In this document: piece by piece, positions 7,513-61,603 of the stretch
Numbering within the stretch: the stretch's first letter is position 1
Layout: each line of letters starts with the position of its first letter
From: a virus
DNA length: 64,000 nt
IMG/VR virus record: IMGVR_UViG_3300033553_000165
Coordinates: 32,897-96,896 of that record
Strand: one strand, 5' to 3'
Notes under the pieces: model-generated
The model's input: the letters and a program-made list of their open reading frames with translations, nothing else
Database searches by the model: none
What the model was told of the DNA's origin: nothing
Position numbers and translations under genes: made by a program

Positions 7513-7514
7513 AA

Positions 7515-7820
7515 CTATTTAGCTTCAAAGTCATTAATCAGCTTTTTATTCATTTCGTACTTCTGCTCCTTGATCTCTTTTTTGAAATGATCTGAGGAAC
7601 GCTTTTGAAGCATCTTTTTTAAAGTCGCCTTATCATTTGACTTTAGAAAATCCGGAACGCCCTCTTTGGGGATAGATGTAAGAACATTTCCGGTTTTTGG
7701 ATTGGTTATGAGTTTACGTGTATGTTTATCCACGTTGACCCATTTACCGTTTCTAGAGACTAGACTGAAGTTAGGAACGGTGAATTTTTCGCCTGTTTTT
7801 TCATCAATAAAATTTGCCAT
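7515..7820 (-). CDS. Hypothetical protein
   Basis: ORF track. Confidence 0.7.
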   Translation of the reverse strand: MANFIDEKTGEKFTVPNFSLVSRNGKWVNVDKHTRKLITNPKTGNVLTSIPKEGVPDFLKSNDKATLKKMLQKRSSDHFKKEIKEQKYEMNKKLINDFEAK

Positions 7821-7827
7821 AGTTTTG

Positions 7828-8367
7828 TTAGGAGTTTATTTTTGATTTTAGATAGTGTAAGATATGTAGTGCGTCAGACTCGTTATCGTCTTCGCCTTGG
7901 TAGTCCCATAATTTTTTAGCATACTCCACCATCAACGGTTTGCCTGCGTTTCCATTAAAAGTGGCAAACTTTTTAATAGAACTGGCTGAGAACTCAATGT
8001 ACTCAACTCCTAATTCAACGCAAACCTTCTCGATTATACCTATCAATTTTGAAGAATGTATGATAGGCTTAATATTCCTTCCAGCTGGGAGCTCATAAGC
8101 TACGACATCGATTTCGTGCTTAGCGAGGAATTTCCGGACTCTGGCGTCAAACCGAATCCATTTCATTCCTTGGCTTTCTTTTGATTTTATATTCAAATCC
8201 CAAAGTTCAACTTTAGGCTCCCCCGTCCCCTCTAATTCGTAAGAAACTCCGCAAATAGTAGCTTGATCAAATGCGGCGATATTTAGAGTGGTTTTTAATC
8301 TAGCGAGCTTTATTTCTTTGGCTCGCTTTAGTTTTTCTTCCCTTTTTAATCTTTCTGCTTTATTCAT
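7828..8367 (-). CDS. ruvC: RuvC-like Holliday junction resolvase
   Basis: IAAFDQATICG, VVAYE, SIKKFATFNGNAGK, DDNESDAL: RuvC acidic residues. Confidence 0.85.
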   Translation of the reverse strand: MNKAERLKREEKLKRAKEIKLARLKTTLNIAAFDQATICGVSYELEGTGEPKVELWDLNIKSKESQGMKWIRFDARVRKFLAKHEIDVVAYELPAGRNIKPIIHSSKLIGIIEKVCVELGVEYIEFSASSIKKFATFNGNAGKPLMVEYAKKLWDYQGEDDNESDALHILHYLKSKINS

Positions 8368-8442
8368 TTACTGGGGGGTTGAGGGGATTTGTAATTAATA
8401 GTTAAATTTTTAACTAAAATCATAATAATTTAACGAAGTTAG

Positions 8443-10350
8443 TTAACTTTTTTTTAATATACTAATGCCATTTACTTTTTTTATTATCAATTCGTTATTT
8501 GCTCCGATGGGTGTATTTCTGTGGGAGACTACCAATGTAGTAACCCCGAGACCTTCCAATATTTTTATCAGATCTTTTTGGCCCGTAACATCCAGACCCT
8601 CAAATACTTCATCTAATCCTAAGAAATTCAAACCACCATTTGGAGCCGACATATTGAATAACTTCTGCATACCTACGATATTGGCTAAATTTATGCGCCC
8701 CTTCTCTCCTCCACTATACTTCTCATATACTCCTACGTTCTTACCGTTCCGGATAATTGAGACGTCTATTTTCTCCCTTACATCGCCACTCTTTAAAACG
8801 GTAAATCCATCTATGTTTACTTGGAGATCAGTATTGATTTTCTTAAGATAGCTGTTTGTGATACCTTCTATGGATTTTATACTCTTATTAGTTAAAAAAG
8901 TCATAAAACCCTTTTTTCCTAAATGGTGTATCCAAAACTCATTTTCATCTACTTTCATTTCCCACTCCAGCATTTCTTTCGTGTGAACTTTTAGCTTCGT
9001 GCGGGCATTACCAAACTCTTCCTTCAGCTTAACGATTTTTTCGTCCTTATTTGCCCCTTCTTTTAGTTTCTCTATAATCTCCTCGTTATTCTTTATAGAA
9101 CGCTTAAATCCTTCTATTTCATCCTCTAGTATAGTGTATGAGTTCTTAAGGCTTTTATGTTTACGCTTGGCGTCTAAATATTCTTGATCAGCTTCATCAG
9201 CCTTCTCAATTTCAACCTCAATATTTTTAATCCGCTTCTCCAACTTTTTAATCGAAACTCCATCAATCTCTATATTCTCCTTAAGAATCTTAATATTCTC
9301 ATTAGTGGCTTCCATTAGTTCCGGAACCTCTTCTAAACTTATATTGGCCGAAGGATTAAATCCAAACTTACATTCTGGACAATCTATTCTCCCCTTCTTG
9401 ATATTCTCCAAGTGGTTTATTAAATGCTCAGCTTCCGCTATATCATCTTGAGTTTTATTTCGCTCCTTTTTTATCTTAGCGATTTTCCCCTTCAACTTCT
9501 TAACCCTATCATATAATTCAGTGGTATCTTTAAGAGCATCCTTTTTAATTAGGATATCTCGCTCCGCAAGAATAACCTTTTCCTCCAATTCCATTCTCTT
9601 TTCACCGCCTTCTGAAATCTTTAATTTATACTTATCAATCTGGTTAGTGTAGCCGGAAATTTTAGTCTCAATCCTCTGTAAATAATTTTCCTTTTCATCC
9701 TTAATTTCACCCTCAATAAATTCCATTTTATTCTCCAATTTCGTAACCTTTTCCTTCAGATCATTTAGCTTTAAATTGTTACCCTTATTGGATGATTTAA
9801 GTTCCTCAATCTTATCACTTATAAATTGGGTGTTTGAAAATCTAGCAATAATATTTTTCTTTTCAGCGTCTCCAGCCGTCAAGAAAGAATAATGCGTATC
9901 TTGCCCTATAACGAAGAAGTGAATGAAGTCCTCACGAGTTAATCCGATAAGTTCTAAGATTCGGTTATTTGCCTCAATTACCGAAGTAACTTGCGTATTC
10001 TTCTCACCGTTCTCCCATAGCTCAATACGTGAAGATTTCTTCCTATCAAACCAGCGTCTAATACTTAGCGTCTTTATTTTGCATACTTGGTTAGTCAGAT
10101 CAAATTGGACATAGGTTTCATCAGCGTCGTCAGCTATGAAACTATCCTTATTTACGTCCCGATTTGTTGAACCTGTTATTGCCAACGTTATTCCTTCAAT
10201 CAGAGTAGACTTTCCGGAACCATTACTATCTGCTCCTGGGTCGGTTTCATTTTCTCCGTAAATCATCACGCATTGATTATTCTGGAATTCATATTCTGAA
10301 TCAGCGTGGGACATTAAGTCTTTAAGTATTATTTTGGTTGGTTGCCACAT
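8443..10350 (-). CDS. sbcC: SbcC/Rad50 (T4 gp46-like) recombination ATPase
   Basis: Walker A SNGSGKST, CPEC zinc hook in the coiled coil, YSGGEKGR signature, LDEVFEGLD, VVSH. Confidence 0.93.
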   Translation of the reverse strand: MWQPTKIILKDLMSHADSEYEFQNNQCVMIYGENETDPGADSNGSGKSTLIEGITLAITGSTNRDVNKDSFIADDADETYVQFDLTNQVCKIKTLSIRRWFDRKKSSRIELWENGEKNTQVTSVIEANNRILELIGLTREDFIHFFVIGQDTHYSFLTAGDAEKKNIIARFSNTQFISDKIEELKSSNKGNNLKLNDLKEKVTKLENKMEFIEGEIKDEKENYLQRIETKISGYTNQIDKYKLKISEGGEKRMELEEKVILAERDILIKKDALKDTTELYDRVKKLKGKIAKIKKERNKTQDDIAEAEHLINHLENIKKGRIDCPECKFGFNPSANISLEEVPELMEATNENIKILKENIEIDGVSIKKLEKRIKNIEVEIEKADEADQEYLDAKRKHKSLKNSYTILEDEIEGFKRSIKNNEEIIEKLKEGANKDEKIVKLKEEFGNARTKLKVHTKEMLEWEMKVDENEFWIHHLGKKGFMTFLTNKSIKSIEGITNSYLKKINTDLQVNIDGFTVLKSGDVREKIDVSIIRNGKNVGVYEKYSGGEKGRINLANIVGMQKLFNMSAPNGGLNFLGLDEVFEGLDVTGQKDLIKILEGLGVTTLVVSHRNTPIGANNELIIKKVNGISILKKS

Positions 10351-14667: not shown

Positions 14668-14933
14668 CCTTCTATTACTTCAATTTTATTAGCCTTTAGT
14701 TGTTCATTAACCTCAATCATCCTCTCCAGATAATCCTTAGCTTTTATAAGGTCTATTTGATTATTCCCCTTACTACTTTCAGGTCGGATGAAACGGTCTA
14801 AATATCGTTCTACGTGTCCCGCACAATAAGCGTCCCCGTGGGTTTTGCTTCTCCTATACATACGGGATATCATATCGTGTTCCTTTTCACCGTATTTAGA
14901 ACGGTTGGAAGCTTCCAGTTCGTCTCTAGTCAT
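14664..14933 (-). CDS. DUF3310 / T7 gp1.7-like putative nucleotide kinase
   Basis: YCAGHVERYLDR...KGNNQIDLIKAKDYLERMI matches the 'GN..KY..R...K....DL.KA..YL' pattern. Confidence 0.6.
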   Translation of the reverse strand: MTRDELEASNRSKYGEKEHDMISRMYRRSKTHGDAYCAGHVERYLDRFIRPESSKGNNQIDLIKAKDYLERMIEVNEQLKANKIEVIEG

Positions 14934-15555
14934 TGTATTTCCAATTTATAGTTTTTAAATCAAATAAAATATTCAGGTCTTTAGTCTCAAGAATAAATGA
15001 ATTTTCTTGGTAATAATCTATACATTCATCAACGGCCAAGTTTAGGTTTTTGATACAATATTTATACTTAACCTTTAAGATCAAGTTCCCTAACTCCATC
15101 TCCTTTTTAATGTAGAACGCCATACTCATCCAGTCTGCGACTTTCACTAATAATTTTACATATTTATGCTTCATAGCGAAATTATCCCGAAATAAGGAAT
15201 TTGATTTCGTTTCAGATCCAAATAAGTTTTCTATGGAAACATCTACGAAACTATCAAGTTCTTGGCGAATTTTGATACCGTTGTGTTTGTTGTACTTAAC
15301 GTTGTGGTTAATGTCACCTGTGAACATTTCGTCAAAGTCGTGAAAGGCAGCATAAGTCATAACCGCTAATTTCTGTTCACACGCTTCCTTTTCGAATATC
15401 TCCTCGGCAAGTATCCTTGAGAACCAAGTTACCAAGAAGCTGTGGTGAGCAACGGTTTCATCCTTTATTCGGTGCATACCGTTCCAACGGATCATATTAT
15501 TTAGTTGATCAAAATTTTCATCAAATAGGATATTTTCAAATAAATTAACTTTCAT
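14926..15555 (-). CDS. HD-domain 5'-deoxynucleotidase (YfbR-like)
   Basis: RWNG...ETVAHHS, HDFDEMFTGDI, VKVAD. Confidence 0.85.
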   Translation of the reverse strand: MKVNLFENILFDENFDQLNNMIRWNGMHRIKDETVAHHSFLVTWFSRILAEEIFEKEACEQKLAVMTYAAFHDFDEMFTGDINHNVKYNKHNGIKIRQELDSFVDVSIENLFGSETKSNSLFRDNFAMKHKYVKLLVKVADWMSMAFYIKKEMELGNLILKVKYKYCIKNLNLAVDECIDYYQENSFILETKDLNILFDLKTINWKYND

Positions 15556-15567
15556 AAGTTGTGGGGA

Positions 15568-18500
15568 TTATAATTCTATTACCTTAGTTCTAGAAGTAAC
15601 TTTGAACATATTTTTACCTCTAAAATCGTCAAAGAAGGCTCCACCGTGAACGGCAAACATTCCTTTAGTTATATTGAGTTCCTTAAATTGTTTTCCATAT
15701 TTCTTGGCTTCCTCTTTCCAGAGAACGGTTAATATGATCGCATTGTTAGATTCTATAGAGACTTTATGGTAAATGTCCCCATTTCTATCTACAGCGTCAA
15801 ATATAGCTAATACCCTTCCAGCTATCGTACAAGGCTCTCCATCATCATACCTTCCTCTCTTTCCTTTTTTAGTATCATTCCAACTTAAAAATGATTGTCC
15901 GTTCCAGTAACTACTTATAACACGCTTCACTTTGGTTTTCTTCATAAGAAGTTCCTTATAATCAATCTCACCAAACCCCGTGATGTCTCTTTGCTTATAT
16001 GTCCAGAACCAGTTCTTATCATTATTTTCGTCAGTCTCTATTTCTTCTGGAATATCGGCTTTAATCAACTCATAATAAGTTTTTAAAACCTTATACCGCT
16101 TTCGGGATTGATTTCCTACTACGTCTCCCTCTGAGTCCTCAATAGCGTCAAACGCTCCTGCGACTATCAAGTTAGTCACAACCCTTTTATTTACCTTGCT
16201 CTTGGGAACCCTATTTAAAAATTCTTCCAATGAAAAGAACATCCCGCCATCTTCTCTAGCTCTAAGGATTTCCGCTACAGCTACCTCCCCTGCGTGCTTA
16301 ATTTTGGTCAACGACCAGTATATGGTATTTTCCTCAGGATCAGAAGTAAAGTGCCTGTCAGACTTATTTATATCTGGGGGCATAACTTTTATCTTTTTCT
16401 TAGAATTTAAGTTAATTGCCGTGATCTCTGAAAGTCTATTCGGAACCTCATTTTTCTCGTCCGAAAAGTTTAAAGAACCCGTCCAAAACTCCAACGGATA
16501 TTTAACTTTAAGATATTGACACCAGTACCCCATCAGGGTGTAGGCTGCGGAGTGAGAACGGTTAAATCCATAAGCAGAGAAAGCATAAAGTTTGTCCCAT
16601 ACTTTAATAGCTATTTCTTCCCCATCACCTTCGGCGAATAGGACTGAGTATCCTTGGATGAATTTTTCCTTGAATTTAGCTAATGATTTATCATCAAACT
16701 TTTTCATATAAGTTCTGACCTGATCGGCTTCGGCTAATGTTAATCCACCGACCACCATCGCTTGCATTACTTGTTCTTGAAATACATATAGACCGTGAGT
16801 ATTTTTGGTTATCACGTCCATATATGGGTCAAACTTCGCTTTCTTCTCCTTATGCTTAATTTTAGCAAAATCATTATGCGCATCACTATCCATCGGTCCT
16901 GGTCTAAATAATGCGTTCATAGAAATTAGGTCTTCTATATTATCAGGTCTTACCTTTTTAGAATAGCTTTTAAGTCCGGAAGTACCAAATTGAAATACGT
17001 CTTCATTCCAACCCTTCTGGAAGAACTTAAAAACGCTCCTACGATTTACCGGAATTTTGTTTAAATTGATCTTTTTACCTTGGTTAACTTTTATCAGCCT
17101 CAAAACTTCTTTAAATTTATCCAGCTGTGCTATCCCCAGAATATCTTCCTTTAAGAACCCAGCACGATCTACATACTTCCCTTCCCATTCTGCTACTAAG
17201 TTCCCATCAATTTTCTTAACAGGCAACCAATCAAAAACCGTCATAGGGTTTCCGTCTTTATCTTCCTTTGGTACAATTAAAACCGCTGACGGATGTATAG
17301 AACCTGCCCTCGGTTGCCCCAAGACTCCTTTTATTACCTCACAGACTTCCGCATTCTTTTGTACGAAGCTTTTCAACTTCGGCTTAATCATAGCGTTATC
17401 AAATATCTCTTGCCAGTTTGCCTTTTGAGAATCCGGAATTTCTTTAGTTGCGAAATTTATATCCTGAAACTGTAAGCCCATTACCCTTCCAAAATCCTTA
17501 AGAGCCGACTTGACTTTCATCCTACTATAAGTTCCCACGGAACATACGCTTGAAACTCCGTATTTCTGTTCTATGTACCTTTTTACTTCCTGCCGCTTAC
17601 TACCTTCAAAATCCACATCAATATCCGGAAGAGCATCAGCCGATTTGGCTCTTTCCCCAGATACTCTAGTTTTATTCATAAATCGCTCAAAAAGTAAATC
17701 ATACTCAATCGGGTCAATTTCCGTAACTCCTAATAAATAGGCTACCAAAGAACCCCCAGCGGAACCCCTTCCTGGTCCTACTAAGATATCATTTTTCTTA
17801 GACCAATCCACTATGTCCCAAAGTATCATAAAATAGTCAACAAACCCCGCACCTACAATAACGTCGTTTTCTTCCTGAATCCGCTCAACGTATTCATTTA
17901 TAGTTTTTTCGTCTTCAAACTTATTAAGAACTTTTTCGGTGAACCCTTCCTCAATTTTTTGGTAATATAAACCTATCGTGTCTTCGTGTTCAAATTTAGG
18001 TAATTTGTGATTTCCTACGTCTATTAGAAAATCGCAAGCTTCAGCAACCTCAACCGTATTGGTTAGGGATTCTATGAATATATCCAACTTATCTTCGTCT
18101 CCAAATAAGGGGAGATTTTCATTAATGATCGTTTGTGAATCCTTGTAATATTGCTGTGATGAAACTGGTTGAGATTTTCGGCTGATATCGTTCAATAGTT
18201 TTTTAACACCGCTATTTACTTTCTCACTATAATAACAGTCTCCTATGTAAATAGGCTTTAAAACCTTATAGAATTTCTTCATATAAGTTTTTATGTTATT
18301 CAGATTTTCCATATCAATGACTTCGTCTTCAAGTTCATTTAGGTCTATCTGGTAATAAAGGTTTTCTTTGCCGTAAATCTCTTGATAAATTTCTATCCTC
18401 TCAAGAAATAATTTACTCTTATTGATAATTCTATTGAAGTAGCTATCCCTCGGAATTACACAAATGATACCTTCGTTGTATTGGAGTAGAATTTCCTCTG

Positions 18501-19194
18501 GAATGAAACCGTTGAAATTTACGTTCACTTCCGTGTTGATTCTTAATAAGTTTCTCCAACCCTTCTCATTCTTAGCATAAACTTTTATCTCAAAAATATT
18601 TTGAAAGTCGGCTTCCGGATCATAATCGTACGCAACCGAATAGGTCGCCCCCATAATTGACTTAACTTCGCTGCCGCATTCTAATTGAAAAGCCAGTGTT
18701 CCTGCTAAGGTGTCTTTGTCGCAAATTGCTAAAGACGGGTGCTTGAAATACTTAGCTTTCTTAACCCAATCTTTCGGCTCCCCAGATCCATTTAATAATT
18801 CGTATCCAGTGTGTACTCCCAGATTTACGAAAGGAATCGGAACCTCGGGTTCATATTCCCCTAAACTTAGAAATTCGTTAAATTCGGGCAGATAAATCAC
18901 GTCGTTGATTTGATCCTTTCCGGTTTTTGAAGTACTTGAATAATAGAACCTTGAACCCCATCTGAAAAGCAAGAATCTTACCTCATCTTCCTCTTCAACA
19001 AAATCCTTTTCCTCATCGGTCATTTTGAAATAGTACTCCCCTTGATCTTTTGAGTCTTCGTTCGTTAATAGGATACCATTTTTAGGTTCAACAAAAAGAA
19101 GAGTCCCCAATTTAGGGACTCTTATACAATTTACTTCCTCAACGATTTCGCAATTAATATTGTGATCTTCTATCCAAGCCTTCAATTCTTCCAT
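15568..19194 (-). CDS. dnaE: DNA polymerase III alpha subunit (family C)
   Basis: PHP domain, GPGRGSAGGSLVAY, LLFERF, PDIDVDF, KEDILG, FQF, RPGP, YGFNRSHS, PPDINKS. Confidence 0.96.
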   Translation of the reverse strand: MEELKAWIEDHNINCEIVEEVNCIRVPKLGTLLFVEPKNGILLTNEDSKDQGEYYFKMTDEEKDFVEEEDEVRFLLFRWGSRFYYSSTSKTGKDQINDVIYLPEFNEFLSLGEYEPEVPIPFVNLGVHTGYELLNGSGEPKDWVKKAKYFKHPSLAICDKDTLAGTLAFQLECGSEVKSIMGATYSVAYDYDPEADFQNIFEIKVYAKNEKGWRNLLRINTEVNVNFNGFIPEEILLQYNEGIICVIPRDSYFNRIINKSKLFLERIEIYQEIYGKENLYYQIDLNELEDEVIDMENLNNIKTYMKKFYKVLKPIYIGDCYYSEKVNSGVKKLLNDISRKSQPVSSQQYYKDSQTIINENLPLFGDEDKLDIFIESLTNTVEVAEACDFLIDVGNHKLPKFEHEDTIGLYYQKIEEGFTEKVLNKFEDEKTINEYVERIQEENDVIVGAGFVDYFMILWDIVDWSKKNDILVGPGRGSAGGSLVAYLLGVTEIDPIEYDLLFERFMNKTRVSGERAKSADALPDIDVDFEGSKRQEVKRYIEQKYGVSSVCSVGTYSRMKVKSALKDFGRVMGLQFQDINFATKEIPDSQKANWQEIFDNAMIKPKLKSFVQKNAEVCEVIKGVLGQPRAGSIHPSAVLIVPKEDKDGNPMTVFDWLPVKKIDGNLVAEWEGKYVDRAGFLKEDILGIAQLDKFKEVLRLIKVNQGKKINLNKIPVNRRSVFKFFQKGWNEDVFQFGTSGLKSYSKKVRPDNIEDLISMNALFRPGPMDSDAHNDFAKIKHKEKKAKFDPYMDVITKNTHGLYVFQEQVMQAMVVGGLTLAEADQVRTYMKKFDDKSLAKFKEKFIQGYSVLFAEGDGEEIAIKVWDKLYAFSAYGFNRSHSAAYTLMGYWCQYLKVKYPLEFWTGSLNFSDEKNEVPNRLSEITAINLNSKKKIKVMPPDINKSDRHFTSDPEENTIYWSLTKIKHAGEVAVAEILRAREDGGMFFSLEEFLNRVPKSKVNKRVVTNLIVAGAFDAIEDSEGDVVGNQSRKRYKVLKTYYELIKADIPEEIETDENNDKNWFWTYKQRDITGFGEIDYKELLMKKTKVKRVISSYWNGQSFLSWNDTKKGKRGRYDDGEPCTIAGRVLAIFDAVDRNGDIYHKVSIESNNAIILTVLWKEEAKKYGKQFKELNITKGMFAVHGGAFFDDFRGKNMFKVTSRTKVIEL

Positions 19195-19195
19195 A

Positions 19196-20383
19196 TTATA
19201 ACTTAGCTGATTGTATTAGTTTTTCCGCTATCACTTCGCCTACTTCGTTATCTAACTTTGAATAGAAAAAATTCTGCGCTAATGCTAAGATATCAAGTGG
19301 GGGATATAATTCGGCAATATCAATAATCTGAAGAAGTTTCTCAAACTTTGCCTTTTCGCTTCTATCAGAAATAAATTTATAATCAATATACAAAAACAGT
19401 AATTCGTAAGTCAGGTACAAGAAGTTTGAAAACGCCTTTACGGATTCTTCTTGTTTTTCCGTTAACTCCGTTTTATTTCTACAAGCATCAATTACTAAGC
19501 TGAACATTTTATCAATTTGCCTTAGCCTTAAATTAACATCTATAGAGTCAAAATTGAAATCCATCTTAAACGGAATAGCGTTATCATAAAGGTCTTCAAA
19601 TTTACCGTTCGTGATTTGAATATTATCATACATATTGAAGGTCGTTGGGTTGGAAGTGTAAACGTGTAAACTTTGAGAATTATGCGTTTGCGTTCCTAAC
19701 TCTACCCCTAATATTCTTGCCATAACTTCCGTCACAAAACTAAACTGGAAGACGTTAGTGGGTAAACCCCAATGTAAATCGTTGCTTCTGTTAGCTATCG
19801 TCGTGATCATTTTTCCGTCCCTTATTTTAAGCATAACAAAATCGTTACACGGGATATCTACAGAGTCCGTACCTAAATCAAGTTCGGCATTCCAAATCTG
19901 TAGGGCAACCCTTCTGGTTTCCGGATTTTCATCTAACATTTGTAAAGCTTTCTCAACTTGATCAAACCCATCAATGATCTGTTGTGATGCGTGACCGTTG
20001 TTTTCCGGAGAAGTGGAATTTATTTCATCATAACTACTTACCCCGTGTTTCCGCATTCTGAAACCGTATGGTGCGTGAAATACCTTCCCATCGTCTGAGA
20101 ATGTTTTCATTTTCGTATTAAAGATTTCCAGAAATTCTACATCCTTTTCCCCTTTGAAAATCCAAAGTGCTTCAGCTAATAAAAAAAATATGTTTATATC
20201 CCTTTCATTATTCCCAACGCATCTAAAATATGGATTGGTTATCTTCAGCTTGAAATCTAAAATCTCTCTCGTGTCCCCATATCGGCTGGGAATGAAGTCC
20301 CCGTTCTCAATAATATATTTATTGACGAAGGGATAATCATATGAAAACCTTTCGGTCTTTAAAGATTCATTTACTATATTCAT
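19196..20383 (-). CDS. Thymidylate synthase homologue, probable dUMP hydroxymethylase
   Basis: APYGFR, ETRR, DIPCN, NRSNDLHWGLPTN, SLHVY. PCN/RSND..WG rather than the ThyA PCH/QRSAD..G; Asn at the dUMP/dCMP specificity position. Confidence 0.75.
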   Translation of the reverse strand: MNIVNESLKTERFSYDYPFVNKYIIENGDFIPSRYGDTREILDFKLKITNPYFRCVGNNERDINIFFLLAEALWIFKGEKDVEFLEIFNTKMKTFSDDGKVFHAPYGFRMRKHGVSSYDEINSTSPENNGHASQQIIDGFDQVEKALQMLDENPETRRVALQIWNAELDLGTDSVDIPCNDFVMLKIRDGKMITTIANRSNDLHWGLPTNVFQFSFVTEVMARILGVELGTQTHNSQSLHVYTSNPTTFNMYDNIQITNGKFEDLYDNAIPFKMDFNFDSIDVNLRLRQIDKMFSLVIDACRNKTELTEKQEESVKAFSNFLYLTYELLFLYIDYKFISDRSEKAKFEKLLQIIDIAELYPPLDILALAQNFFYSKLDNEVGEVIAEKLIQSAKL

Positions 20384-53483: not shown

Positions 53484-55586
53484 TTACTTGAATTCTTTTA
53501 CTATCATTTTACTCCTATTCAAAATAATAGCGAAGTCGGTATTTGACCCCCAACCTCTTTTACTTACAATAGCGTCGTAACCTTTAATGGCCGCATAGAA
53601 CCCTCGATATGTACCTCCAGGATTTTGTATTATCTGAGCAATCACCGCATTTGTTGTATTGCTTCCATTAACCCGTAATTTTTGAATATCGTCAGATAAG
53701 GTCTTTATGGTTTGTTCTGCAACTTTAATGCTATCATTGATATCAACCATTTTCGGATTCTCTATTTTCTCTTCCGCTATCTTAAGAGCGACCGCTGCTC
53801 GGATAGTCTGAAAGTGGTTCTTCATAACGTATTGCTTCAACCTTGTATAATGCCAGTTGTAAGGAGTCGTGTGGTCAAATTTTTGTTTAATACTTACATC
53901 TGCAATATCCTTGTTTAATAGGAAGGTTTCACTAGAATTTGGTAAACTTACTTTCCAAGTTTTTTCGTCAACCTCTTCTAATTTTCCATTAACGCTTTTC
54001 AGGATAGCTTCATAATAGGTAACAACTTTTTGTATATCAAATTTTTCTGTATCGGCATAAACTTCTTCCGGCTTGCTAAATAAAAGTATATTGTAGGCTT
54101 TCTCGTTCCAGCCCATTTTTTCTTTTACGTTGAAATCAATTTCATCTTCAATTCTTTCTCTTTCATTAAGTAGTTCGTTGAAGTCGTCTTTCGCTGTATC
54201 GTATTCTTTTTTCTTTTCCTTAAACTCATCACCAAAGAACTCGTCATTCATCATTTGATCAAGTTCCTCTCCGTCTATAACCTTAGCGTCGGAAGGTATA
54301 ATTACATCAAGTACGTGATCTGGGTCTCCTCCGGCATATCCTAATGCTACATTGTAATCTTCGTTATAAGGTGGAGGATTTACCCTCTTAGCGTTAACAG
54401 CCGCATAAATTCCGGCTCCGTACATAGCTTGAGTTCCGTAGAAACATTCTTCTCCCTCAGCAAAATCCCTCATAAACTTCTTAGCAGGATTTCCATAAGA
54501 ACCCGTTAATCCACGGTTCAGCATAAGGTTTTTGGGGTCGTCTTTGAGTAGCTTCGCAAATTCCTTTTCAGTGACTACTGTAGGAGGTTTATCGAACCCT
54601 CTCAGCTTACAAATATTTGAAAGGAAAGACCAGCCATTACTGTCAGTAGCAGTAATATTTCCAGCTTTCCTCATAGCTCTACTGATTTCCCTTTCTCTTA
54701 GTTCTCTATGTGGATCTTTTTCTTCGTCAGATACATAATCCTTCAAGTCTAATAACCTATTGGTCATCGTTTCCTTAAGATCAGCGTCCTCTATTAATGA
54801 AAGAATATTATCTCCCTTAACAAGAATTTGCTTTATTTGCTTTTTTATTTGAGCGTCGGTTAAACCCGAAGCCATATATGGGTTATGTTGAGCCATAGAA
54901 TCAAGCTCATCGACATCATCGGTGAAATGGTCTCCCTTGGGACGTCCTTGAGCTGAGAATCTTAGCGCTCCTCCGTTATCAACCCTAACAAAACTTCCGT
55001 CGTCATTATTATTAAGAATATTATCGTTCTTATAGATATCCCAGTTAGCCAATAAACAATCAAGTACAAAGTGGTTAGCTATATCATCACGAAGCTGATC
55101 ATCCATAATATCGTTAGCGGCAACCGTATTAGGCATAAAATCCGAAAGTAAGGTAGAACTGTCCTTCCCCTTATACAGTTTCATATTAGGCACGCTCACG
55201 TCAAATAGCTTATAAATACAGTTGGCGAGATATTCCTCCTCAACGTGCGCTTTGCTATTCCCGTTCTTCATAACGTATTGATTCCCGTCCTTATCTTCTA
55301 CAAGTTTAGCGCCTGTAGAACCACCTAAACCCTTTACCAACTTTACGTCAGTAATTTCAGGAAAATGGTCGGTTTCGAAAAGTTCGTCGGCTGACTTAGC
55401 CTTCGCCTTCTTAGTTAATTTACGCCAATCAAGTTTTCCGGATGGCGTCATCTTTACGATAAAAGTCTCTCCGTTCACTACTTTAATATCCCCAAGTTTT
55501 AAAGCCTTCATCAATATTTGAGAAGGCTCTAATCCATTAAGGTGATCTCGTAAAGTTCTTGACTTTATGAATTCAATCTTATTCAT
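53484..55586 (-). CDS. Multidomain protein: PI3/4-kinase/HipA-like kinase plus ADP-ribosyltransferase-like domain
   Basis: LGGSTGA..YVMK, EEYLAN, DCLLANWD..NDNI, VDNGGAL (kinase); NRG...YGAGIY...A..Y...DAKVI...AAIKGYDAI...IILNR (ART-like). Confidence 0.72.
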   Translation of the reverse strand: MNKIEFIKSRTLRDHLNGLEPSQILMKALKLGDIKVVNGETFIVKMTPSGKLDWRKLTKKAKAKSADELFETDHFPEITDVKLVKGLGGSTGAKLVEDKDGNQYVMKNGNSKAHVEEEYLANCIYKLFDVSVPNMKLYKGKDSSTLLSDFMPNTVAANDIMDDQLRDDIANHFVLDCLLANWDIYKNDNILNNNDDGSFVRVDNGGALRFSAQGRPKGDHFTDDVDELDSMAQHNPYMASGLTDAQIKKQIKQILVKGDNILSLIEDADLKETMTNRLLDLKDYVSDEEKDPHRELREREISRAMRKAGNITATDSNGWSFLSNICKLRGFDKPPTVVTEKEFAKLLKDDPKNLMLNRGLTGSYGNPAKKFMRDFAEGEECFYGTQAMYGAGIYAAVNAKRVNPPPYNEDYNVALGYAGGDPDHVLDVIIPSDAKVIDGEELDQMMNDEFFGDEFKEKKKEYDTAKDDFNELLNERERIEDEIDFNVKEKMGWNEKAYNILLFSKPEEVYADTEKFDIQKVVTYYEAILKSVNGKLEEVDEKTWKVSLPNSSETFLLNKDIADVSIKQKFDHTTPYNWHYTRLKQYVMKNHFQTIRAAVALKIAEEKIENPKMVDINDSIKVAEQTIKTLSDDIQKLRVNGSNTTNAVIAQIIQNPGGTYRGFYAAIKGYDAIVSKRGWGSNTDFAIILNRSKMIVKEFK

Positions 55587-57060
55587 TAAATTTTAGGATT
55601 TCAAGTGCTTTTTGAATACTATCTACATCAGCCTGATCCGTCCAAGTTCCTTTCACTAAATACCGCTTAACTTCGTCTTTCCAATCTTCTTTTGGTCCGA
55701 AGGCTTGAATAGCAATACTTGGATTGTTATCGTGATCCTCATTCGCTTCTTCAATTGCCCGTTTCTTATTAATAGCTTCCATCATAGTTCTAGAAGTAAA
55801 CCTTCCTGGATCAATGCTATCGATATTGTCTGAGATTATTTCAAAAACGTCTTCTCTTTCTTCTTGATCTTCGGTCTTATCGTCCAAACGGTCAATACCC
55901 GTAAAGTCAAATTTATGACGAAGGTTTCCGATAAATTGTAATTGTTCTCTTTTAGTGAAATTTATATCCTTCTTAATCGCTCTGGAATAAATAGCGTTAA
56001 TGTGAGAATCTTTAGTAAGATCGTCTTGGGTCATATTCGTAAGGAATATAATTTGACCAGTAAATTCAAACGGATCAACGTTAGAACTACTGTTCATACT
56101 TACCTTACCGATTATCCTTTTACCTCCAGAAGCTGTAGCCTTTTTCATTATACCTCTACAATCCTTTTCTGTAAGAACGTTATCCGTATCATCGAAAAGA
56201 ATTACTTTCCCGTTGTGTTGTTGTAGGATTTGTAAAAGCTGAGAAGGGGAAGCAACTTCACCTACTTCTGCGTAATCATAATCTCCATCTCCTGGTTCGT
56301 GTTCAGTCGAGTCAAAAGGACGCTTTCCTCTAATTTCCGCAACTAAGTGAAAGTTGTAAGATTTACCTACACCCGCACCACCCGATGCAATCATCAGTGG
56401 AGAATCGCTTCTTAGGAAACGGGAATACGTTTTATTAAGGTCAAAAATTTCTTGTTGTGGCGGAACGTAATGGGGCATCGAAGTTTTCATCTTATGGATG
56501 AATTGATCGGCAGCAATACGTTGTCTTTTAGTTTTTAATCCTCCGAATTTCTTTTTAATGAAATCAGGATTATCCCATTCTTCCATTTCTTCAAGTAATT
56601 CTTCATCATCCAAAATATCTTGAATACCTTGTCCGGAAGGAGCGGAAGTAGCAGCGGCAGGTGGTGGAGTTGTTCCGTCGCCCATAGCGTCTATCATTTT
56701 TCCATAACGACCAGTCTTCAAATCAATATCAGAAACATCCTCATCTCTACTTACTAATTCGTCGTAAGCAGCTTGCCTTAATTCCGGAGCATTTCCTGGT
56801 TTGTTAGCATATTCCTTTAAGGTTTTTACGTCTTTCTTTTTCAAAACTCCAAGAAGTTTAGACATATTAGAACCTCCACCTGAAGTCTTTTTTGAAGCCT
56901 TAGAAGATGCTTGTTTTCTCCAGTCAAACTTTCCAGGTTTATATTCCGTCCAAACTAAAGTGTCGCCGTGTTTATCAACTCTAGTATCTCCTACTTGTCG
57001 AGTCGCAGCTTTTGAAATGATATCGCCTAATGCTTCAGACGCTTTTTGGTTACTTTCCAT
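55579..57060 (-). CDS. AAA+ ATPase with N-terminal extension
   Basis: SGGAGVGKS (Walker A), ILFDDTD (Walker B), IIFLTN (sensor 1), AIYSR (Arg finger). Confidence 0.85.
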   Translation of the reverse strand: MESNQKASEALGDIISKAATRQVGDTRVDKHGDTLVWTEYKPGKFDWRKQASSKASKKTSGGGSNMSKLLGVLKKKDVKTLKEYANKPGNAPELRQAAYDELVSRDEDVSDIDLKTGRYGKMIDAMGDGTTPPPAAATSAPSGQGIQDILDDEELLEEMEEWDNPDFIKKKFGGLKTKRQRIAADQFIHKMKTSMPHYVPPQQEIFDLNKTYSRFLRSDSPLMIASGGAGVGKSYNFHLVAEIRGKRPFDSTEHEPGDGDYDYAEVGEVASPSQLLQILQQHNGKVILFDDTDNVLTEKDCRGIMKKATASGGKRIIGKVSMNSSSNVDPFEFTGQIIFLTNMTQDDLTKDSHINAIYSRAIKKDINFTKREQLQFIGNLRHKFDFTGIDRLDDKTEDQEEREDVFEIISDNIDSIDPGRFTSRTMMEAINKKRAIEEANEDHDNNPSIAIQAFGPKEDWKDEVKRYLVKGTWTDQADVDSIQKALEILKFNE

Positions 57061-57099: not shown

Positions 57100-58515
57100 T
57101 TAATCACTCATCCAGTGAGGCATCTCATCATATTTAAAATGAGATGTCATAATTTTTACCGCCTCATCTTGAATCTTCTTAGTTGATTTTCCAACTTCCA
57201 GCTGCTTTATTAAACTTTGGGCATTTACAACCTCCAAAAGTAATTGCATATTCAAGTTCGGATTTAACAAATCTTTAGCTAACTCAAAATTATGCCTTAT
57301 ATCCTTCTTAAATTTCTTCGGACACATTTCCTTAGCTTTATTAAGATACTCCCCAAATTCGGCTGGAGTAGAATCGTACGGAATGTATATCGCCTTTAAG
57401 TCACGGAAAATAAAATCTTCCTCAACTACATCTTTCCGATAATTTCTAAGAACGGGATAACAACCGTTAATTATTGCTTCAATTATAAACCCGTTGAGAT
57501 GTGTATTTACAAATTTAGCGTAATGGGTACTGAAGGATGGGTCAATGGCAAACTTGGAATTTCTGAGTAAGAAATTAACTTCCTCATTACTTATCAACCC
57601 CAAATATTCCATACCGTGTTCTTCCGCTCTCGTCCAAAGACTTTTTCCTACGTCTTTTTTTAAACAGTCCGGATCAGTCTTAACCGAAACGGTATATTTA
57701 GGCTTTTGTTTTTCTACATTATCCGTCATCATATAATAGAGCTCAATCCCACTTCCAGCTACCATAGTCGTCGCCTTAAACAAATAAGGAACCGCTGAAA
57801 CTAAATCTTCCATCCGCTTCATAGATTTAAAAATATGAGCAGCGAAAAAATCTACCGACCTTTCTTCCATACCTAAAAATGGAGTTGTATTTTCGTCGTC
57901 AATATAGCGTGAGTCTAAATTAAGAAGTCTGGGGATATCAAAAACCTTACACGCCTCATAACTTGTAATATGTACACATTCAAAAAACTTAATCTTGGAC
58001 TTTAATAAATTCGTCCAACTATTTCGCATATCATAATACCCGTCGTGTATTGTAAGAACTTGTTTAATACTCTCAGGAATTTCAAAATAACGGTGCCACC
58101 AATTAAACCCTTTCGCTTCGCTGGTCTTAGTTGGTACGAAACTCCATATAATAAGGTCAACCCCCTCTAAGGCTTTATTCCAATAGTCTAAACCCGTTTC
58201 TTCATTCAAACACGCTATCCTATTGGTATTCGGTTTCAATAACCAACCATAGTAAGAATTAAACCAATATCCCGTTATCTCAGATTTGGCGTAACCTCCA
58301 TTTTGACTTTTTATTTCTAAGCTGTCTTGAAAGTCTCCGGATTCTAATTTCTCTAATTTCTTATCATATTGATTTTCCGGAATACTATTTACATAATCCA
58401 ATATGATAATATCTACGTCGTGACCTAAATCCTGAAGTGCCTTAAATTTAGCTTCGATGTGAGCAACGATGCCTCCATATTTTGCAATAGCAAATGTAGC
58501 GAATCTTATTTTCAT
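57100..58515 (-). CDS. GT-B fold glycosyltransferase (GT4-like)
   Basis: YGGIVAH...LQDLGHDV; KSMKR; AGSG; YLGLIS; IDPS; IIEAIINGCYPV. Confidence 0.85.
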   Translation of the reverse strand: MKIRFATFAIAKYGGIVAHIEAKFKALQDLGHDVDIIILDYVNSIPENQYDKKLEKLESGDFQDSLEIKSQNGGYAKSEITGYWFNSYYGWLLKPNTNRIACLNEETGLDYWNKALEGVDLIIWSFVPTKTSEAKGFNWWHRYFEIPESIKQVLTIHDGYYDMRNSWTNLLKSKIKFFECVHITSYEACKVFDIPRLLNLDSRYIDDENTTPFLGMEERSVDFFAAHIFKSMKRMEDLVSAVPYLFKATTMVAGSGIELYYMMTDNVEKQKPKYTVSVKTDPDCLKKDVGKSLWTRAEEHGMEYLGLISNEEVNFLLRNSKFAIDPSFSTHYAKFVNTHLNGFIIEAIINGCYPVLRNYRKDVVEEDFIFRDLKAIYIPYDSTPAEFGEYLNKAKEMCPKKFKKDIRHNFELAKDLLNPNLNMQLLLEVVNAQSLIKQLEVGKSTKKIQDEAVKIMTSHFKYDEMPHWMSD

Positions 58516-59174
58516 TTCTTGGTATAAAATTCTTCAGGTAATTTTTTATCAATATAACCTTTCTCAAAAAATAATAAGCTTCTTTGGGTTTTGTATATTT
58601 CATAAGCGGCATCAAATTTTAGCTTATGATTTTCTTCGTTGAAATAAAGTTCCGGCTCAGATAGTCCGTGGGTGAATTCTTCCATAGAACCTTTAGCCTT
58701 CACTTTGTAGCTATGAGGAAAATCTCTATAAAATACGTCCGCATATTTTTGAGTAGTAAACCTAACGAACCAATGCATTGGATGCCCTATTCCTAAGCAA
58801 ACAACTATCTCATAATTTCGCTTTTTATATTTCTTCACTATGCTAATTATGTCTCTCCCTAATTCCGACATAAACTTTCCGCCAAACCTATGATCAAGCG
58901 TTTTCATACTATCTTCTACATTAAACTTTTTAAAATTCAGTTCCTTATAGTAAGTGTAATATGAATTGTCCTCAAATTCAACGTTAGAATTTATGTATTC
59001 GTCTATTCCAAAAAGGTCGCATAGTATTTCATCTTCCAGCGCTCTTTTTTCATTACGCTCAACTGTGAATAAAGTAACCTTACCATAATCTTCCCTGTTG
59101 AATAGGTATCGGGACGCACTAAATAATACGTCGTCTGAGTGCGGCTGGATAAGCAGCAAATTCTTTTTAGCCAT
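58512..59174 (-). CDS. PIG-L/LmbE-family de-N-acetylase
   Basis: LIQPHSDD, RALED, GIGHPMH, FYRDFPH, K..A...YKTQ; ATGA-coupled to the glycosyltransferase. Confidence 0.82.
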   Translation of the reverse strand: MAKKNLLLIQPHSDDVLFSASRYLFNREDYGKVTLFTVERNEKRALEDEILCDLFGIDEYINSNVEFEDNSYYTYYKELNFKKFNVEDSMKTLDHRFGGKFMSELGRDIISIVKKYKKRNYEIVVCLGIGHPMHWFVRFTTQKYADVFYRDFPHSYKVKAKGSMEEFTHGLSEPELYFNEENHKLKFDAAYEIYKTQRSLLFFEKGYIDKKLPEEFYTKK

Positions 59175-59187
59175 CTAATTTTAATTT

Positions 59188-60090
59188 TTACGTTATTTTA
59201 ATCTTAACTTTGGACTTCCTTTTTACTCCGTGAGTGTTTCTTGTAATTACAAAACGCTTCTTAGCATTATCCCATTTAGAATCTGGAGGAATAACGTGTA
59301 AAATTGAACGAGCCCAAGGATGAGCAGGACCAACGACTGGGTCTTGATCTTTCTTTCCGATATTATTTCCGTTAGCTAATAAATCATCTAATCTATAAAT
59401 AACAGGCTTGTCTCCTGGTTTGCCGTAATTTTCTTCACAGTGTTTACAAACTCCTGGAAAGGTTTGTTTATAAACTTCAACATCTGGTCCGTAAGTATCT
59501 AATAATTCTTGAGCTCTTCCGAAGGCATATGCTTCTTGTAAAACAAAATCCGCTATTCTGGAGAAGTCTCTAGCCCAATCTTCAGTGAGATGTCTGAGTT
59601 CGGATGCTAATTGTTGACTCGTCCAACCCTTATCAAAACCCTCTATAGATTTTTTCTTAACTGCCGCTGTAATCTTTTTACGTTTACTGACCGAAGCTGT
59701 TAGGATTCTATTTGATAGATTGCTCTTCATTTTATTACCTAATCCGGCAAGATCAGTGAAGGCTCTATTTTTTATATAAGCCAACCCCTCAGTTTTTGTA
59801 ACGCTATTTGGTTGATTTAATCTTTCTTTGAAGAATTTCTCGAAGTTCTTATTGGTAACTTTAAATGACTTCAAACCTCCTAAAGATTGAGCCATCATAC
59901 CAAAATAATATGCCCGATCAACTTCGGACATAAAGGTATCAAAATCATCTGGGTCTACCCCATAAGACTTTAGAAGCATAATTTGGTAAGGAGATAGGTA
60001 TTCTAAACCTAATTGTGAGCCTATGAATACCGCTTGATTCTTATCTATGATCTCAAGTATTTTCCATATCTGACTAATACTAAAATTCAT
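59188..60090 (-). CDS. MuF/gp7-like head morphogenesis protein
   Basis: DW.RDF.RIA, CKHC, GPAHPWAR (variant of HPxCR). Confidence 0.7.
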   Translation of the reverse strand: MNFSISQIWKILEIIDKNQAVFIGSQLGLEYLSPYQIMLLKSYGVDPDDFDTFMSEVDRAYYFGMMAQSLGGLKSFKVTNKNFEKFFKERLNQPNSVTKTEGLAYIKNRAFTDLAGLGNKMKSNLSNRILTASVSKRKKITAAVKKKSIEGFDKGWTSQQLASELRHLTEDWARDFSRIADFVLQEAYAFGRAQELLDTYGPDVEVYKQTFPGVCKHCEENYGKPGDKPVIYRLDDLLANGNNIGKKDQDPVVGPAHPWARSILHVIPPDSKWDNAKKRFVITRNTHGVKRKSKVKIKIT

Positions 60091-60317: not shown

Positions 60318-60914
60318 CTAATACTTTACGAAGATATCCTTTTTTAACGACATTTCAAATACATTCAAAGTATTGTAACTCGCTTCAAGTTGATATCCCT
60401 TTTTATTTCTAACACCTATCTCCGGACCAATACCTGTTTCGCCATTTCCGGACGAAACTCCTAATCCCGCAGATAAGGCAAATTTAGGCTTTTTTTCGTA
60501 GATTTTAGTGATTGTTCTTTCTTCGTAAGTTACCTCATCTAAAACCAACGACCAGTTCTTTCCTAAGTAGAAACCTTGAACCGAATCTTGAATCCTTAAA
60601 GTTCCTCTATCAAAAGCATAGGTGGTATCATAAACCCTGGTTCTGAAATCGGATAAAACTCTCTCAAGTCTCAACTTATCATTTTTCAACTGAGCAATCA
60701 TTGCTAAATATTTCGGGTCGGTCTTATAAACCAATTTCGGTACAAGTAAAGTATCTATAATGTTTATAGTGTCCGCTTTAATAGTTTTAATAACTACCAA
60801 GGTGTCAACTTTTACGGGTTGTTCGTCGTCAAAGTGACCACCTGTTCCGCAACTCTTAAAAAGTAATAGGACTAATAATGCCCCGACGATTATGTATGCT
60901 AGCGCTGTTTTCAT
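60318..60914 (-). CDS. Spanin-like lysis accessory protein
   Basis: N-terminal TM/lipobox-like ...LLLFKSC, short coiled coil, C-terminal beta strands; TAATG-coupled to the endolysin. Confidence 0.5.
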   Translation of the reverse strand: MKTALAYIIVGALLVLLLFKSCGTGGHFDDEQPVKVDTLVVIKTIKADTINIIDTLLVPKLVYKTDPKYLAMIAQLKNDKLRLERVLSDFRTRVYDTTYAFDRGTLRIQDSVQGFYLGKNWSLVLDEVTYEERTITKIYEKKPKFALSAGLGVSSGNGETGIGPEIGVRNKKGYQLEASYNTLNVFEMSLKKDIFVKY

Positions 60915-61603
60915 TATATACTGATTTTATATTCACGTTTGTAGTTTAGACCTTTCCAGACCTCAAATTCATCATTACGACGGAATTGTAAACCTCTAAG
61001 GTAAACCCCTCCGGCAGTAACGTATTTTGTAGTAAACCAATTTTTTATTTCCGATTCACTAGCACGTTCATTCACTAATTTATACATCGTTGAAGAAAAT
61101 CCGCAATTATATGCGTGACTTACTAATGCATCAAATTGATTTTGAGAAACTTCTACTTTTAATCTTTTCAGAACCCCCTTACCTTTTTCCTTGGCAGTCT
61201 TTTCTAAATCAGCGTCGGCTTCTTCTATCGTATGTATTCTGGCGAAAGGTAGAACCGATTCCAAAGTAGGATATTTGTCCACTTTCATCATTTTACCTTT
61301 AGAGTCCCGCATAACGCTTCCCCAACCTTCAGTCCAAATTCCAATTGGATCAAGTTTAGGTTGTAATCCGATCTTGCTTAAATCTCCATCATGTAAAGAT
61401 TCAAACTCCTTTATAAATTCCAAGATTTCTCTAGATGGTTCCATTTCCTTTTCCTCTATTGTTTTAAGTATTTCTACAACCGCCTTTTCAGCGTCTTCTT
61501 CTTTTACATTTTTGATAATTTCAAGAATTACCATATTTATATCTTTCCTTTCAATCGGCTTCTTCATAAAGATCACCGATATTAACCATTTTAAAATTTT
61601 CAT
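60914..61603 (-). CDS. Endolysin, GH24 lysozyme
   Basis: IKEFE...DPIGIWTEGWG, QNQFDALVS.AYNCG, AGGVYLRGLQFRRNDE. Confidence 0.9.
   Translation of the reverse strand: MKILKWLISVIFMKKPIERKDINMVILEIIKNVKEEDAEKAVVEILKTIEEKEMEPSREILEFIKEFESLHDGDLSKIGLQPKLDPIGIWTEGWGSVMRDSKGKMMKVDKYPTLESVLPFARIHTIEEADADLEKTAKEKGKGVLKRLKVEVSQNQFDALVSHAYNCGFSSTMYKLVNERASESEIKNWFTTKYVTAGGVYLRGLQFRRNDEFEVWKGLNYKREYKISI

Follow-up and report, generated by a model that had tools for sequence, protein, structure and literature searches.

A translationally coupled LmbE-type deacetylase and GT-B glycosyltransferase in the head-gene block of an uncultured phage family: a candidate route to hexosaminyl-5-hydroxymethyluracil in DNA

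The DNA considered here is the final 64 kb (hereafter the window) of the IMG/VR virus record IMGVR_UViG_3300033553_000165, which is 96,896 bp long and rated 98% complete; nearly all genes of the window lie on its minus strand. Among them, two coupled genes encode an LmbE/PIG-L-fold zinc de-N-acetylase (P0001, 220 residues; 58512-59174, minus strand; assigned from a fold model and motifs) and a GT-B glycosyltransferase of the retaining GT4/GT5-like type (P0002, 471 residues; 57100-58515, minus strand; assigned from a model and Pfam), and DNA is very probably the target of this pair, on grounds that are comparative and not chemical. As for the chemistry, it is reasonably likely that the two enzymes form a two-step post-replicative module, which would place an N-acetylhexosamine (HexNAc) on the 5-hydroxymethyluracil (hmU) of DNA and then de-N-acetylate it, giving hexosaminyl-hmU with a primary amine; HexNAc as the sugar, the hydroxyl of hmU as the acceptor and the order of the steps are what we infer from the comparisons below. 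The chances are about even that this phage family, together with several unrelated phages, makes such an undescribed base, alpha-hexosaminyl-5-hydroxymethyluracil, and that some relatives tailor it further. The argument for a DNA target is carried by gene fusions and gene displacement in related viruses, not by co-occurrence.

Regarding the fusions, the family profile of P0001 was searched against 1.84 billion representatives and the fused forms were then scanned by Pfam; the search returned about 30 core representatives and several fused forms. In three architectures, P0001 relatives are joined to TAGT (PF20691), by which T2/T6 put a further glucose on glucosyl-5-hydroxymethylcytosine (glucosyl-hmC) DNA and which usually accompanies a GT-B DNA glucosyltransferase (PMC13216743, PMC13390438). 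P0234 is an LmbE-TAGT fusion, with an LmbE part 37% identical to P0001 and intact motifs, and with a TAGT part related to the TAGT of the studied genome; P0310 has the reverse order, TAGT-PIG-L, and P0230 joins a radical SAM/SPASM protein to LmbE (both by Pfam). Searches of IMG/VR for P0310 and P0258 did not find them. The LmbE-TAGT fusion is carried on 106-113-kb contigs and, in the viral contigs L081 and L082, it occupies the exact slot of the pair, between a MuF-like gene and the homolog of p493, the gene downstream of the glycosyltransferase; there it is flanked by FkbM methyltransferase or radical SAM genes, and an HMUDK-type gene precedes the portal gene. In a further contig, L085, the LmbE domain is 60% identical to P0001 and is fused to TAGT in a gene that overlaps a Tet_JBP dioxygenase gene by 4 nucleotides and adjoins the terminase gene.

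The same partners also occur as separate neighbours: TAGT is adjacent to the deacetylase clade in L150, L151 and L152, and the last of these has the order ADDT (amino acid:DNA transferase), LmbE, small open reading frame (ORF), radical SAM, TAGT, small ORF, HMUDK_hel, portal. Finally, in the relative G028 (97,483 bp, 98% complete, with a thymidylate-synthase homolog), TAGT stands in the slot of the GT-B gene, and the GT-B family profile finds no GT-B in that genome; the radical SAM genes of G028 and of L064, a locus with a GT-B, share 89% identity. By its fusions and adjacencies, the deacetylase clade keeps company with enzymes for which DNA bases are the sole substrates known or predicted, and the exchange in G028 argues that the GT-B is interchangeable with a DNA-type transferase. 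The small contig L085 is of interest in its own right: the fusion, the dioxygenase and the terminase large subunit follow one another in a row (L085:2743-6452), as in a compact base-J-type cassette (oxidise, then glycosylate) with a deacetylase added, and the other genes of that phage are unrelated.

The studied genome encodes its own TAGT and HMUDK-type proteins, both outside the window. Its TAGT (genome 11896-12720, minus strand) matches PF20691 at 1.7e-14, with 54.7 bits against a cut-off of 27.5, and also phrog_842, 'beta-glucosyl-HMC-alpha-glucosyltransferase'; the gene overlaps by 4 nucleotides that of P0226, an HMUDK_hel ('5-hmdU DNA kinase helical domain') protein (genome 10895-11899, minus strand; PF18723, 4.4e-53), and the two are placed between the terminase (18116-19792) and portal (6832-8460) genes. 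TAGT is accessory in the family, PF20691 being found in 4 of 27 records and in 2 of the 22 near-complete genomes that are at least 90% complete. An aGPT-Pplase was sought by Pfam and gave no match among the proteins scanned near the TAGT/HMUDK cluster, which are only part of the ORFs of the genome. As side observations on the HMUDK-type gene, the hmU pathway may be kinase-less, as P0226 consists of the helical domain only; in most relatives the homolog matches as two segments with extra residues between them; and in one relative (G004:7176-8141) the gene has a TGA and a TAA inside, which may be a sequencing error, a pseudogene or recoding.

As for the location of the pair, the gene directly upstream (59188-60090, minus strand) encodes a MuF-like minor head protein of 300 residues, P0003, whose end is 13 nucleotides from the start of the deacetylase gene. 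P0003 had no match in Pfam and PHROG scans and was recognised by its protein-atlas features (0.95; 26 of 30 matches in Phage_Mu_F clusters), and its homolog in L151 has the canonical HPYCRC motif; a MuF-like gene is kept upstream of the pair in related loci. At the junction of the pair the minus strand reads ...AAGAAATGAAAATA..., in which the TGA stop of the deacetylase and the ATG start of the transferase share the four letters ATGA (58512-58515, minus strand, read directly from the sequence). Downstream of the transferase follow p493, p700, a 136-residue protein, the prohead protease and the major capsid protein. Promoter-like and terminator-like sites around the two genes are no commoner than chance, which places the pair inside a long late transcription unit. 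The original prediction had described a PIG-L-family gene with PHSDD and HPMH motifs, ATGA-coupled to a GT-B transferase directly after MuF in the head module, and all of this stands: the motifs are invariant in 45 homologs and the model has the LmbE fold, the overlap is read from the letters and the GT-B fold from a confident model, and the MuF-like gene is in place.

This location gives rise to the main rival of a DNA target, modelled on the virion glycosylation of mycobacteriophages, in which HexNAc would be O-linked by the GT-B to a virion protein (capsid, internal or MuF-associated) and then trimmed by the deacetylase. In all 77 related loci the pair does stand among the head-morphogenesis genes, with the MuF-like gene on one side and those of the protease and major capsid protein on the other, and the structural matches of P0002 include the protein O-GlcNAc transferases GtfA and SdgB and the teichoic-acid N-acetylglucosamine (GlcNAc) transferase TarM. 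Position does not discriminate, however: TAGT and HMUDK_hel are themselves found among packaging and head genes, so that the location of the pair is no argument against DNA. In addition, the deacetylase clade is fused or adjacent to the DNA-base enzymes TAGT, TET/JBP, ADDT and HMUDK_hel, and a scan of the proteome for Ser/Thr-rich repeat substrates gave nothing convincing; overall, a virion target appears improbable.

The background for an hmU base lies elsewhere in the window, where a thymidylate-synthase homolog of the SPO1 gp29 (dUMP hydroxymethylase) type (395 residues; 19196-20383, minus strand; Pfam, PHROG) matches Thymidylat_synt at 2e-22 and phrog_5131 at 4e-68. Among 50,697 phage records, its closest relatives are the dUMP hydroxymethylases of the hmU phages SPO1, SP8, SP10 and CP-51, with 37-40% identity, and the alignment with SPO1 gp29 keeps the catalytic Cys179, the RSxD motif and the dUMP-type Asn210. 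The protein is a candidate dUMP hydroxymethylase, sequence alone being unable to separate a hydroxymethylase from a plain thymidylate synthase. Directly downstream is a DnaE-type DNA polymerase III alpha (15568-19194, minus strand; Pfam DNA_pol3_alpha, 4e-69), followed by a YfbR-like HD 5'-deoxynucleotidase (14926-15555, minus strand; Pfam YfbR-like, 4e-18), a candidate for clearing canonical nucleotides. As a separate observation, the thymidylate-synthase homolog of one complete relative has an in-frame TGA (G014:58402-59559), which may be a sequencing error, a pseudogene or recoding.

The genome had been predicted to encode a dUMP-hydroxymethylase-like enzyme, and this closeness to gp29 of SPO1 and to the enzymes of SP10 and SP8 bears it out. 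DNA modification, with HexNAc put on hmU and de-N-acetylated late in infection, had been the leading proposal, ahead of a virion target, and is now the best supported reading, given the fusions and adjacencies of the clade to base-modifying enzymes, the TAGT and HMUDK_hel genes of the genome itself, the displacement of the GT-B by TAGT in a near-complete relative, and the thymidylate-synthase homolog in 24 of 24 near-complete relatives. The co-occurrence test suggested at the same time fared less well: the pair and the thymidylate-synthase homolog do occur together in all 24, and the result is not discriminating, for everything is core.

In P0001, sequence searches gave little, with no Pfam (E<=0.01), PHROG or NCBIfam match; a precomputed match to PF02585, the model of the LmbE/PIG-L superfamily (CE14), is present on its homolog P0018, and further ones on more distant fused relatives. 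Its only PDB sequence match, a weak one, is Dbv21 (3e-4 with the family profile), and both motif regions are aligned. An AlphaFold model built with 45 homologs had a mean predicted local distance difference test score (pLDDT) of 95.6, and Foldseek placed Dbv21 at the top (1e-8, to 3dfi), then Orf2*, BC1534, diacetylchitobiose deacetylase, MshB and BshB; the 36 matches at E<=0.001 are mostly LmbE enzymes. VIA-align likewise ranks the glycopeptide pseudoaglycone deacetylases Orf2* and Dbv21 first (Z 17.4-18.4, 182-194 residues aligned), the best being Orf2* with Z 18.4 over 193 residues and a root-mean-square deviation of 3.1; BshB and MshB follow with Z 14.8 and 12.6. The nearest structures are, in short, GlcNAc-glycoside deacetylases that tolerate bulky aglycones.

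The motifs PHSDD (H12, D14, D15) and GHPMH (H131, H134) of P0001 align to those of Dbv21, and H12, D14, D15, H131, H134, R150 and H154 are invariant across the 45 homologs; by the established enzymology of MshB and BshB, we take this set to be the zinc ligands, the general base and the oxyanion histidine. On the model, P0001 is confirmed as an LmbE/PIG-L-fold deacetylase with the full metal and catalytic motif set, and de-N-acetylation is its predicted activity. The signature is intact in 131 locus matches of the fetched loci. One subclade (L064, L074, L076, L150 and L151; for example L151:6001-6681) has a degenerate active site, with PHAGD in place of PHSDD, HPFN in place of HPMH and Tyr in place of His154, and these homologs are probably inactive pseudo-enzymes kept at the same locus, beside a GT-B or a TAGT. 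The idea that decay of the deacetylase is confined to loci in which TAGT has taken the place of the GT-B was ruled out, since L064, L074 and L076 are degenerate and yet keep the GT-B.

As for P0002, its N-terminal region has a weak Pfam match to Glyco_transf_5 (25 bits, cut-off 22.7), which is shared by 42 of 44 members of its family, while Glycos_transf_1 is matched by 15 of the 44, with 9e-5 at best. The model (pLDDT 92.4) has the two Rossmann domains of the GT-B fold, and Foldseek gave at least 500 matches at E<=0.001; among the matches listed all are GT-B, the top ones are BshA (1.4e-10), TarM, glycogen synthases and MshA, and the highest TM-scores belong to T4 alpha-glucosyltransferase (AGT). 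The latter also gave the longest VIA-align alignment (Z 24.4 over 344 of 380 residues), and a structure search independent of Foldseek returned it with Z 23.6 over 351 residues; TarM, 6eji, PimA and HepE come within 1 Z of AGT, BshA is also counted in the top tie, and GT4 enzymes overall score Z 21-24. Beyond its own family, the BFVD neighbours of P0002 comprise two 'DNA alpha-glucosyltransferase' entries and a glycosyltransferase of the hypermodified-DNA Bacillus phage SP-15, and AGT clusters are among its nearest named sets in the protein atlas (0.98; 8 of 30 matches), which is a lead only. Invariant in the family are Y13-G14-G15, K230, K233 and E346; judged by motif, these may be the Gly-rich loop of the N-terminal half and the basic residues and C-terminal Glu with which such enzymes bind the nucleotide sugar. 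From the model, we read P0002 as working like a retaining GT4/AGT-type enzyme; membership of the AGT family is not claimed, as there is no PF11440 sequence match.

These structural neighbours lend themselves to a different target, a small molecule or the host envelope, with the pair making a glucosaminyl metabolite in the manner of BshA/BshB or MshA/MshB, or modifying a host lipid or teichoic acid. Foldseek ranks BshA first for the transferase and has BshB and MshB among the matches of the deacetylase, and the deacetylase gene precedes that of the transferase just as bshB1 precedes bshA in B. subtilis. The identity to such enzymes is only 12-17%, however, and no NCBIfam equivalog matches; the pair belongs to the core late genes of a lytic-type phage family, and its context is always one of DNA-modification or packaging genes. 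A role of this kind is therefore very doubtful.

A DNA target with another chemistry has also to be weighed: the sugar could be placed on a phosphorylated or amino-acid-derivatised hmU, the GT-B could be a second-sugar enzyme, or LmbE could act on a different amide, for example hydrolysing an N-acetylated amine on the base. HMUDK_hel belongs to the family core, an ADDT gene abuts the deacetylase in L152, pathways of the PaMx11 type use acetyltransferases on thymidine adducts (PMC8989533), and TAGT is a second-sugar enzyme in T2/T6 (PMC13216743), all of which would suit one or another of these variants. Against them, every structural neighbour of the deacetylase that has been characterised works on GlcNAc-type glycosides, the GT-B is the sole detectable glycosyltransferase in most genomes of the family (PF20691 being as rare as said above, in 2 of 22), and the HMUDK-type protein has no P-loop. 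Taken jointly, and with the different-amide variant counted among them, these chemistries are rather unlikely.

Under the favoured two-step reading, the phage would replace thymine with hmU by means of the dUMP hydroxymethylase of SPO1-gp29 type, the HD nucleotidase and its own DnaE polymerase, hmdUMP being supplied by the thymidylate-synthase homolog and built into DNA. Late in infection, the pair would be expressed together with the head and packaging genes, on one long transcript. The GT-B, acting like T4 AGT and retaining the configuration, would glycosylate hmU in DNA at its hydroxymethyl group with an N-acetylhexosamine, the donor probably being UDP-GlcNAc. The N-acetyl group would then be stripped off by the zinc hydrolase of LmbE type that is translationally coupled to the transferase, to leave hexosaminyl-hmU with a free primary amine, which would block nucleases and offset the charge of DNA, as in putrescinyl-thymine or 5-NeOmdU. 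In the studied genome TAGT may add a second sugar; further tailoring, in relatives, would fall to a BtrN-like radical SAM enzyme and the FkbM methyltransferase.

Several points weigh against this scheme. The substrates of the pair are predicted from comparison, and its place between the MuF-like and head genes fits a virion target too. The degenerate subclade means that deacetylation is not universal. As for the transferase, PF11440 (AGT) is matched by 0 of 44 members of the P0002 family at E<=1, the P0002 profile has no match among PDB sequences, and its best structural matches, no more than 1 Z apart, include transferases that act on DNA, on lipids and on small molecules as well as protein O-GlcNAc transferases; the isoelectric points of its family are unremarkable (median 7.8; P0002 5.9), and those of the deacetylase family are no more informative. 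P0226 lacks a Walker A motif or P-loop and has only the helical domain. Finally, all components are core in the family, and co-occurrence inside it does not discriminate.

Comparison with known systems helps to place the proposed module. In the T-even phages (T4 AGT, GT72, PF11440, with the T2/T6 TAGT), a TS-family (thymidylate-synthase) enzyme makes a hydroxymethyl-pyrimidine before replication and the sugar is put on DNA post-replicatively, as would be the case here; the GT-B is tied for best structural match with AGT, and a TAGT is in the same genome. Unlike T-even phages, the base would be hmU and not hmC, P0002 has no PF11440 match, the coupled LmbE deacetylase has no T-even counterpart, and the genes stand in the head/packaging block. 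A second group of parallels is formed by MshA/MshB, BshA/BshB, PIG-A/PIG-L and the teicoplanin GlcNAc-transferase with Orf2* (A40926 homolog, Dbv21), in which a zinc de-N-acetylase of LmbE fold acts after a retaining GT-B and lays bare the amine of the sugar; P0001 is structurally nearest to Orf2*/Dbv21 and conserves the catalytic His/Asp/His set, whereas sequence identity is 12-28% and the acceptor in the phage would most likely be a DNA base in place of inositol phosphate, malate, a lipid or a glycopeptide. A ligase or acyltransferase for a later step has not come to light in the phage, where no search was aimed at a third-step ligase.

The hypermodification pathways of PhiW-14, SP10, ViI and M6 (dUMP hydroxymethylase, 5-HMUDK, aGPT-Pplase, PLP and radical SAM enzymes) also start from an hmU precursor, and the product proposed here would likewise carry a primary amine; an HMUDK-family gene is present in the studied genome and radical SAM tailoring enzymes in its relatives, and in M6 a radical SAM enzyme acts on a thymidine adduct (PMC8989533). 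The differences are that the amine would come from a deacetylated sugar, not from an amino acid or polyamine, that the HMUDK-type protein has no P-loop, and that no aGPT-Pplase is among the proteins scanned. The MT-TET-GT clusters (HexNAc-5hmC; bioRxiv 10.1101/2023.12.21.572611) and base J (JBP with JGT), in turn, place a HexNAc or hexose on a hydroxymethyl-pyrimidine of DNA, and the L085 relative of the deacetylase, fused to TAGT and overlapping a Tet_JBP gene, recalls them; they differ in that no deacetylase step is described there, and in that the studied phage would make its hydroxymethyl base before replication by the thymidylate-synthase homolog.

Regarding the transferases of such systems, phage GT-A enzymes make HexNAc- and di-HexNAc-5hmC, and the GT-B DNA transferases, which are similar to BshA, MshA and PglH, go together with thymidylate-synthase homologs (bioRxiv 10.1101/2023.12.21.572611). 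According to PMC13326640, BshA-like GT-B enzymes arabinosylate the DNA of DLP3 and RB69, and groups are transferred to hydroxyl-bearing pyrimidines late, leading up to packaging. None of the cited DNA-modification papers, as far as their available text goes, has a deacetylase step in phage DNA hypermodification, and full-text literature searches for LmbE or deacetylase with phage DNA modification returned nothing relevant.

The known phage DNA sugars (glucose, arabinose, HexNAc, heptose and Kdo) are, to our knowledge, neutral or acidic, and the cationic thymidine adducts we know of derive from amino acids or polyamines. If true, on-DNA de-N-acetylation would join both themes in a glycosylated base with a primary amine; LmbE would be a new enzyme class in the toolbox of DNA hypermodification, and the DNA would bear aminoglycoside-like decorations diversifying under defence pressure. 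As part of the core gene set of a large family of uncultured phages (about 90-120 kb), and recurring in other architectures, the module may commonly be the unrecognised reason why viral DNA resists restriction and is sequenced or amplified poorly; enzymes for the site-specific amino-functionalisation of hmU or hmC DNA would be obtainable from it as well.

As for conservation, the homologs of P0001 and P0002 are all metagenomic, mostly on 90-120-kb contigs, and reach E values of 1e-119 and 1e-270, respectively. The order MuF-like, deacetylase, transferase, p493, p700, p136, protease, capsid is kept in 77 IMG/VR loci, with identities of 37-68% for the transferase and 54-80% for the capsid protein; the 4 loci that gave no deacetylase match are cut at the transferase. 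Such homologs and such conserved gene order indicate that P0001 and P0002 are real genes. Each of the 24 near-complete relatives combines the pair with a thymidylate-synthase homolog and an HMUDK-type gene. The cultured-phage records of INPHARED gave no DNA or protein match for the region, the transferase, the deacetylase or a distant homolog.

The block varies among relatives by the genes inserted in it. A radical SAM/SPASM gene recurs beside the deacetylase, its only PDB sequence match being the aminocyclitol dehydrogenase BtrN (2e-11), and further insertions include an FkbM-type methyltransferase, an N6/N4 DNA methylase and GIY-YIG homing endonucleases; together the inserted genes look like a variable cassette for tailoring sugars. 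On comparison of the loci, the junction of deacetylase and transferase is an insertion hot spot: GIY-YIG/NUMOD3 homing-endonuclease genes lie between or beside the two in L048:9312-10004, L079:9327-10004, L006:3942-4544 and L050:9297-10004, and the DNA methylase is among the insertions in L050.

The neighbours of the pair offer some minor observations. Where relatives have the canonical HPYCRC, the MuF-like protein of the window (59188-60090) has HPWARS; in some relatives the MuF-like gene is lengthened to 553-842 residues (L020:5769-7430, L050:5569-7569, L115:34-2562) by unrelated C-terminal parts, which resemble MuF-toxin fusions. Downstream of the transferase, p493 (493 residues; 55579-57060, minus strand) belongs to phrog_1250, of unknown function, has a Walker A motif (GGAGVGKS at residue 227) and is syntenic in relatives; p700 (700 residues; 53484-55586, minus strand) is syntenic as well and has no family match in Pfam, PHROG and NCBIfam scans. 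Both p493 and a 372-residue Walker-A protein (genome 15030-16148) match the same short segments of ORFs in L081, L082 and L084, and the common segment may be a shared targeting segment. Finally, 60914-61603, upstream of the MuF-like gene, encodes an endolysin (Phage_lysozyme, 4e-18); lysis genes are not usually found where this one is, within the late block and with the portal region on one side and the head genes on the other.

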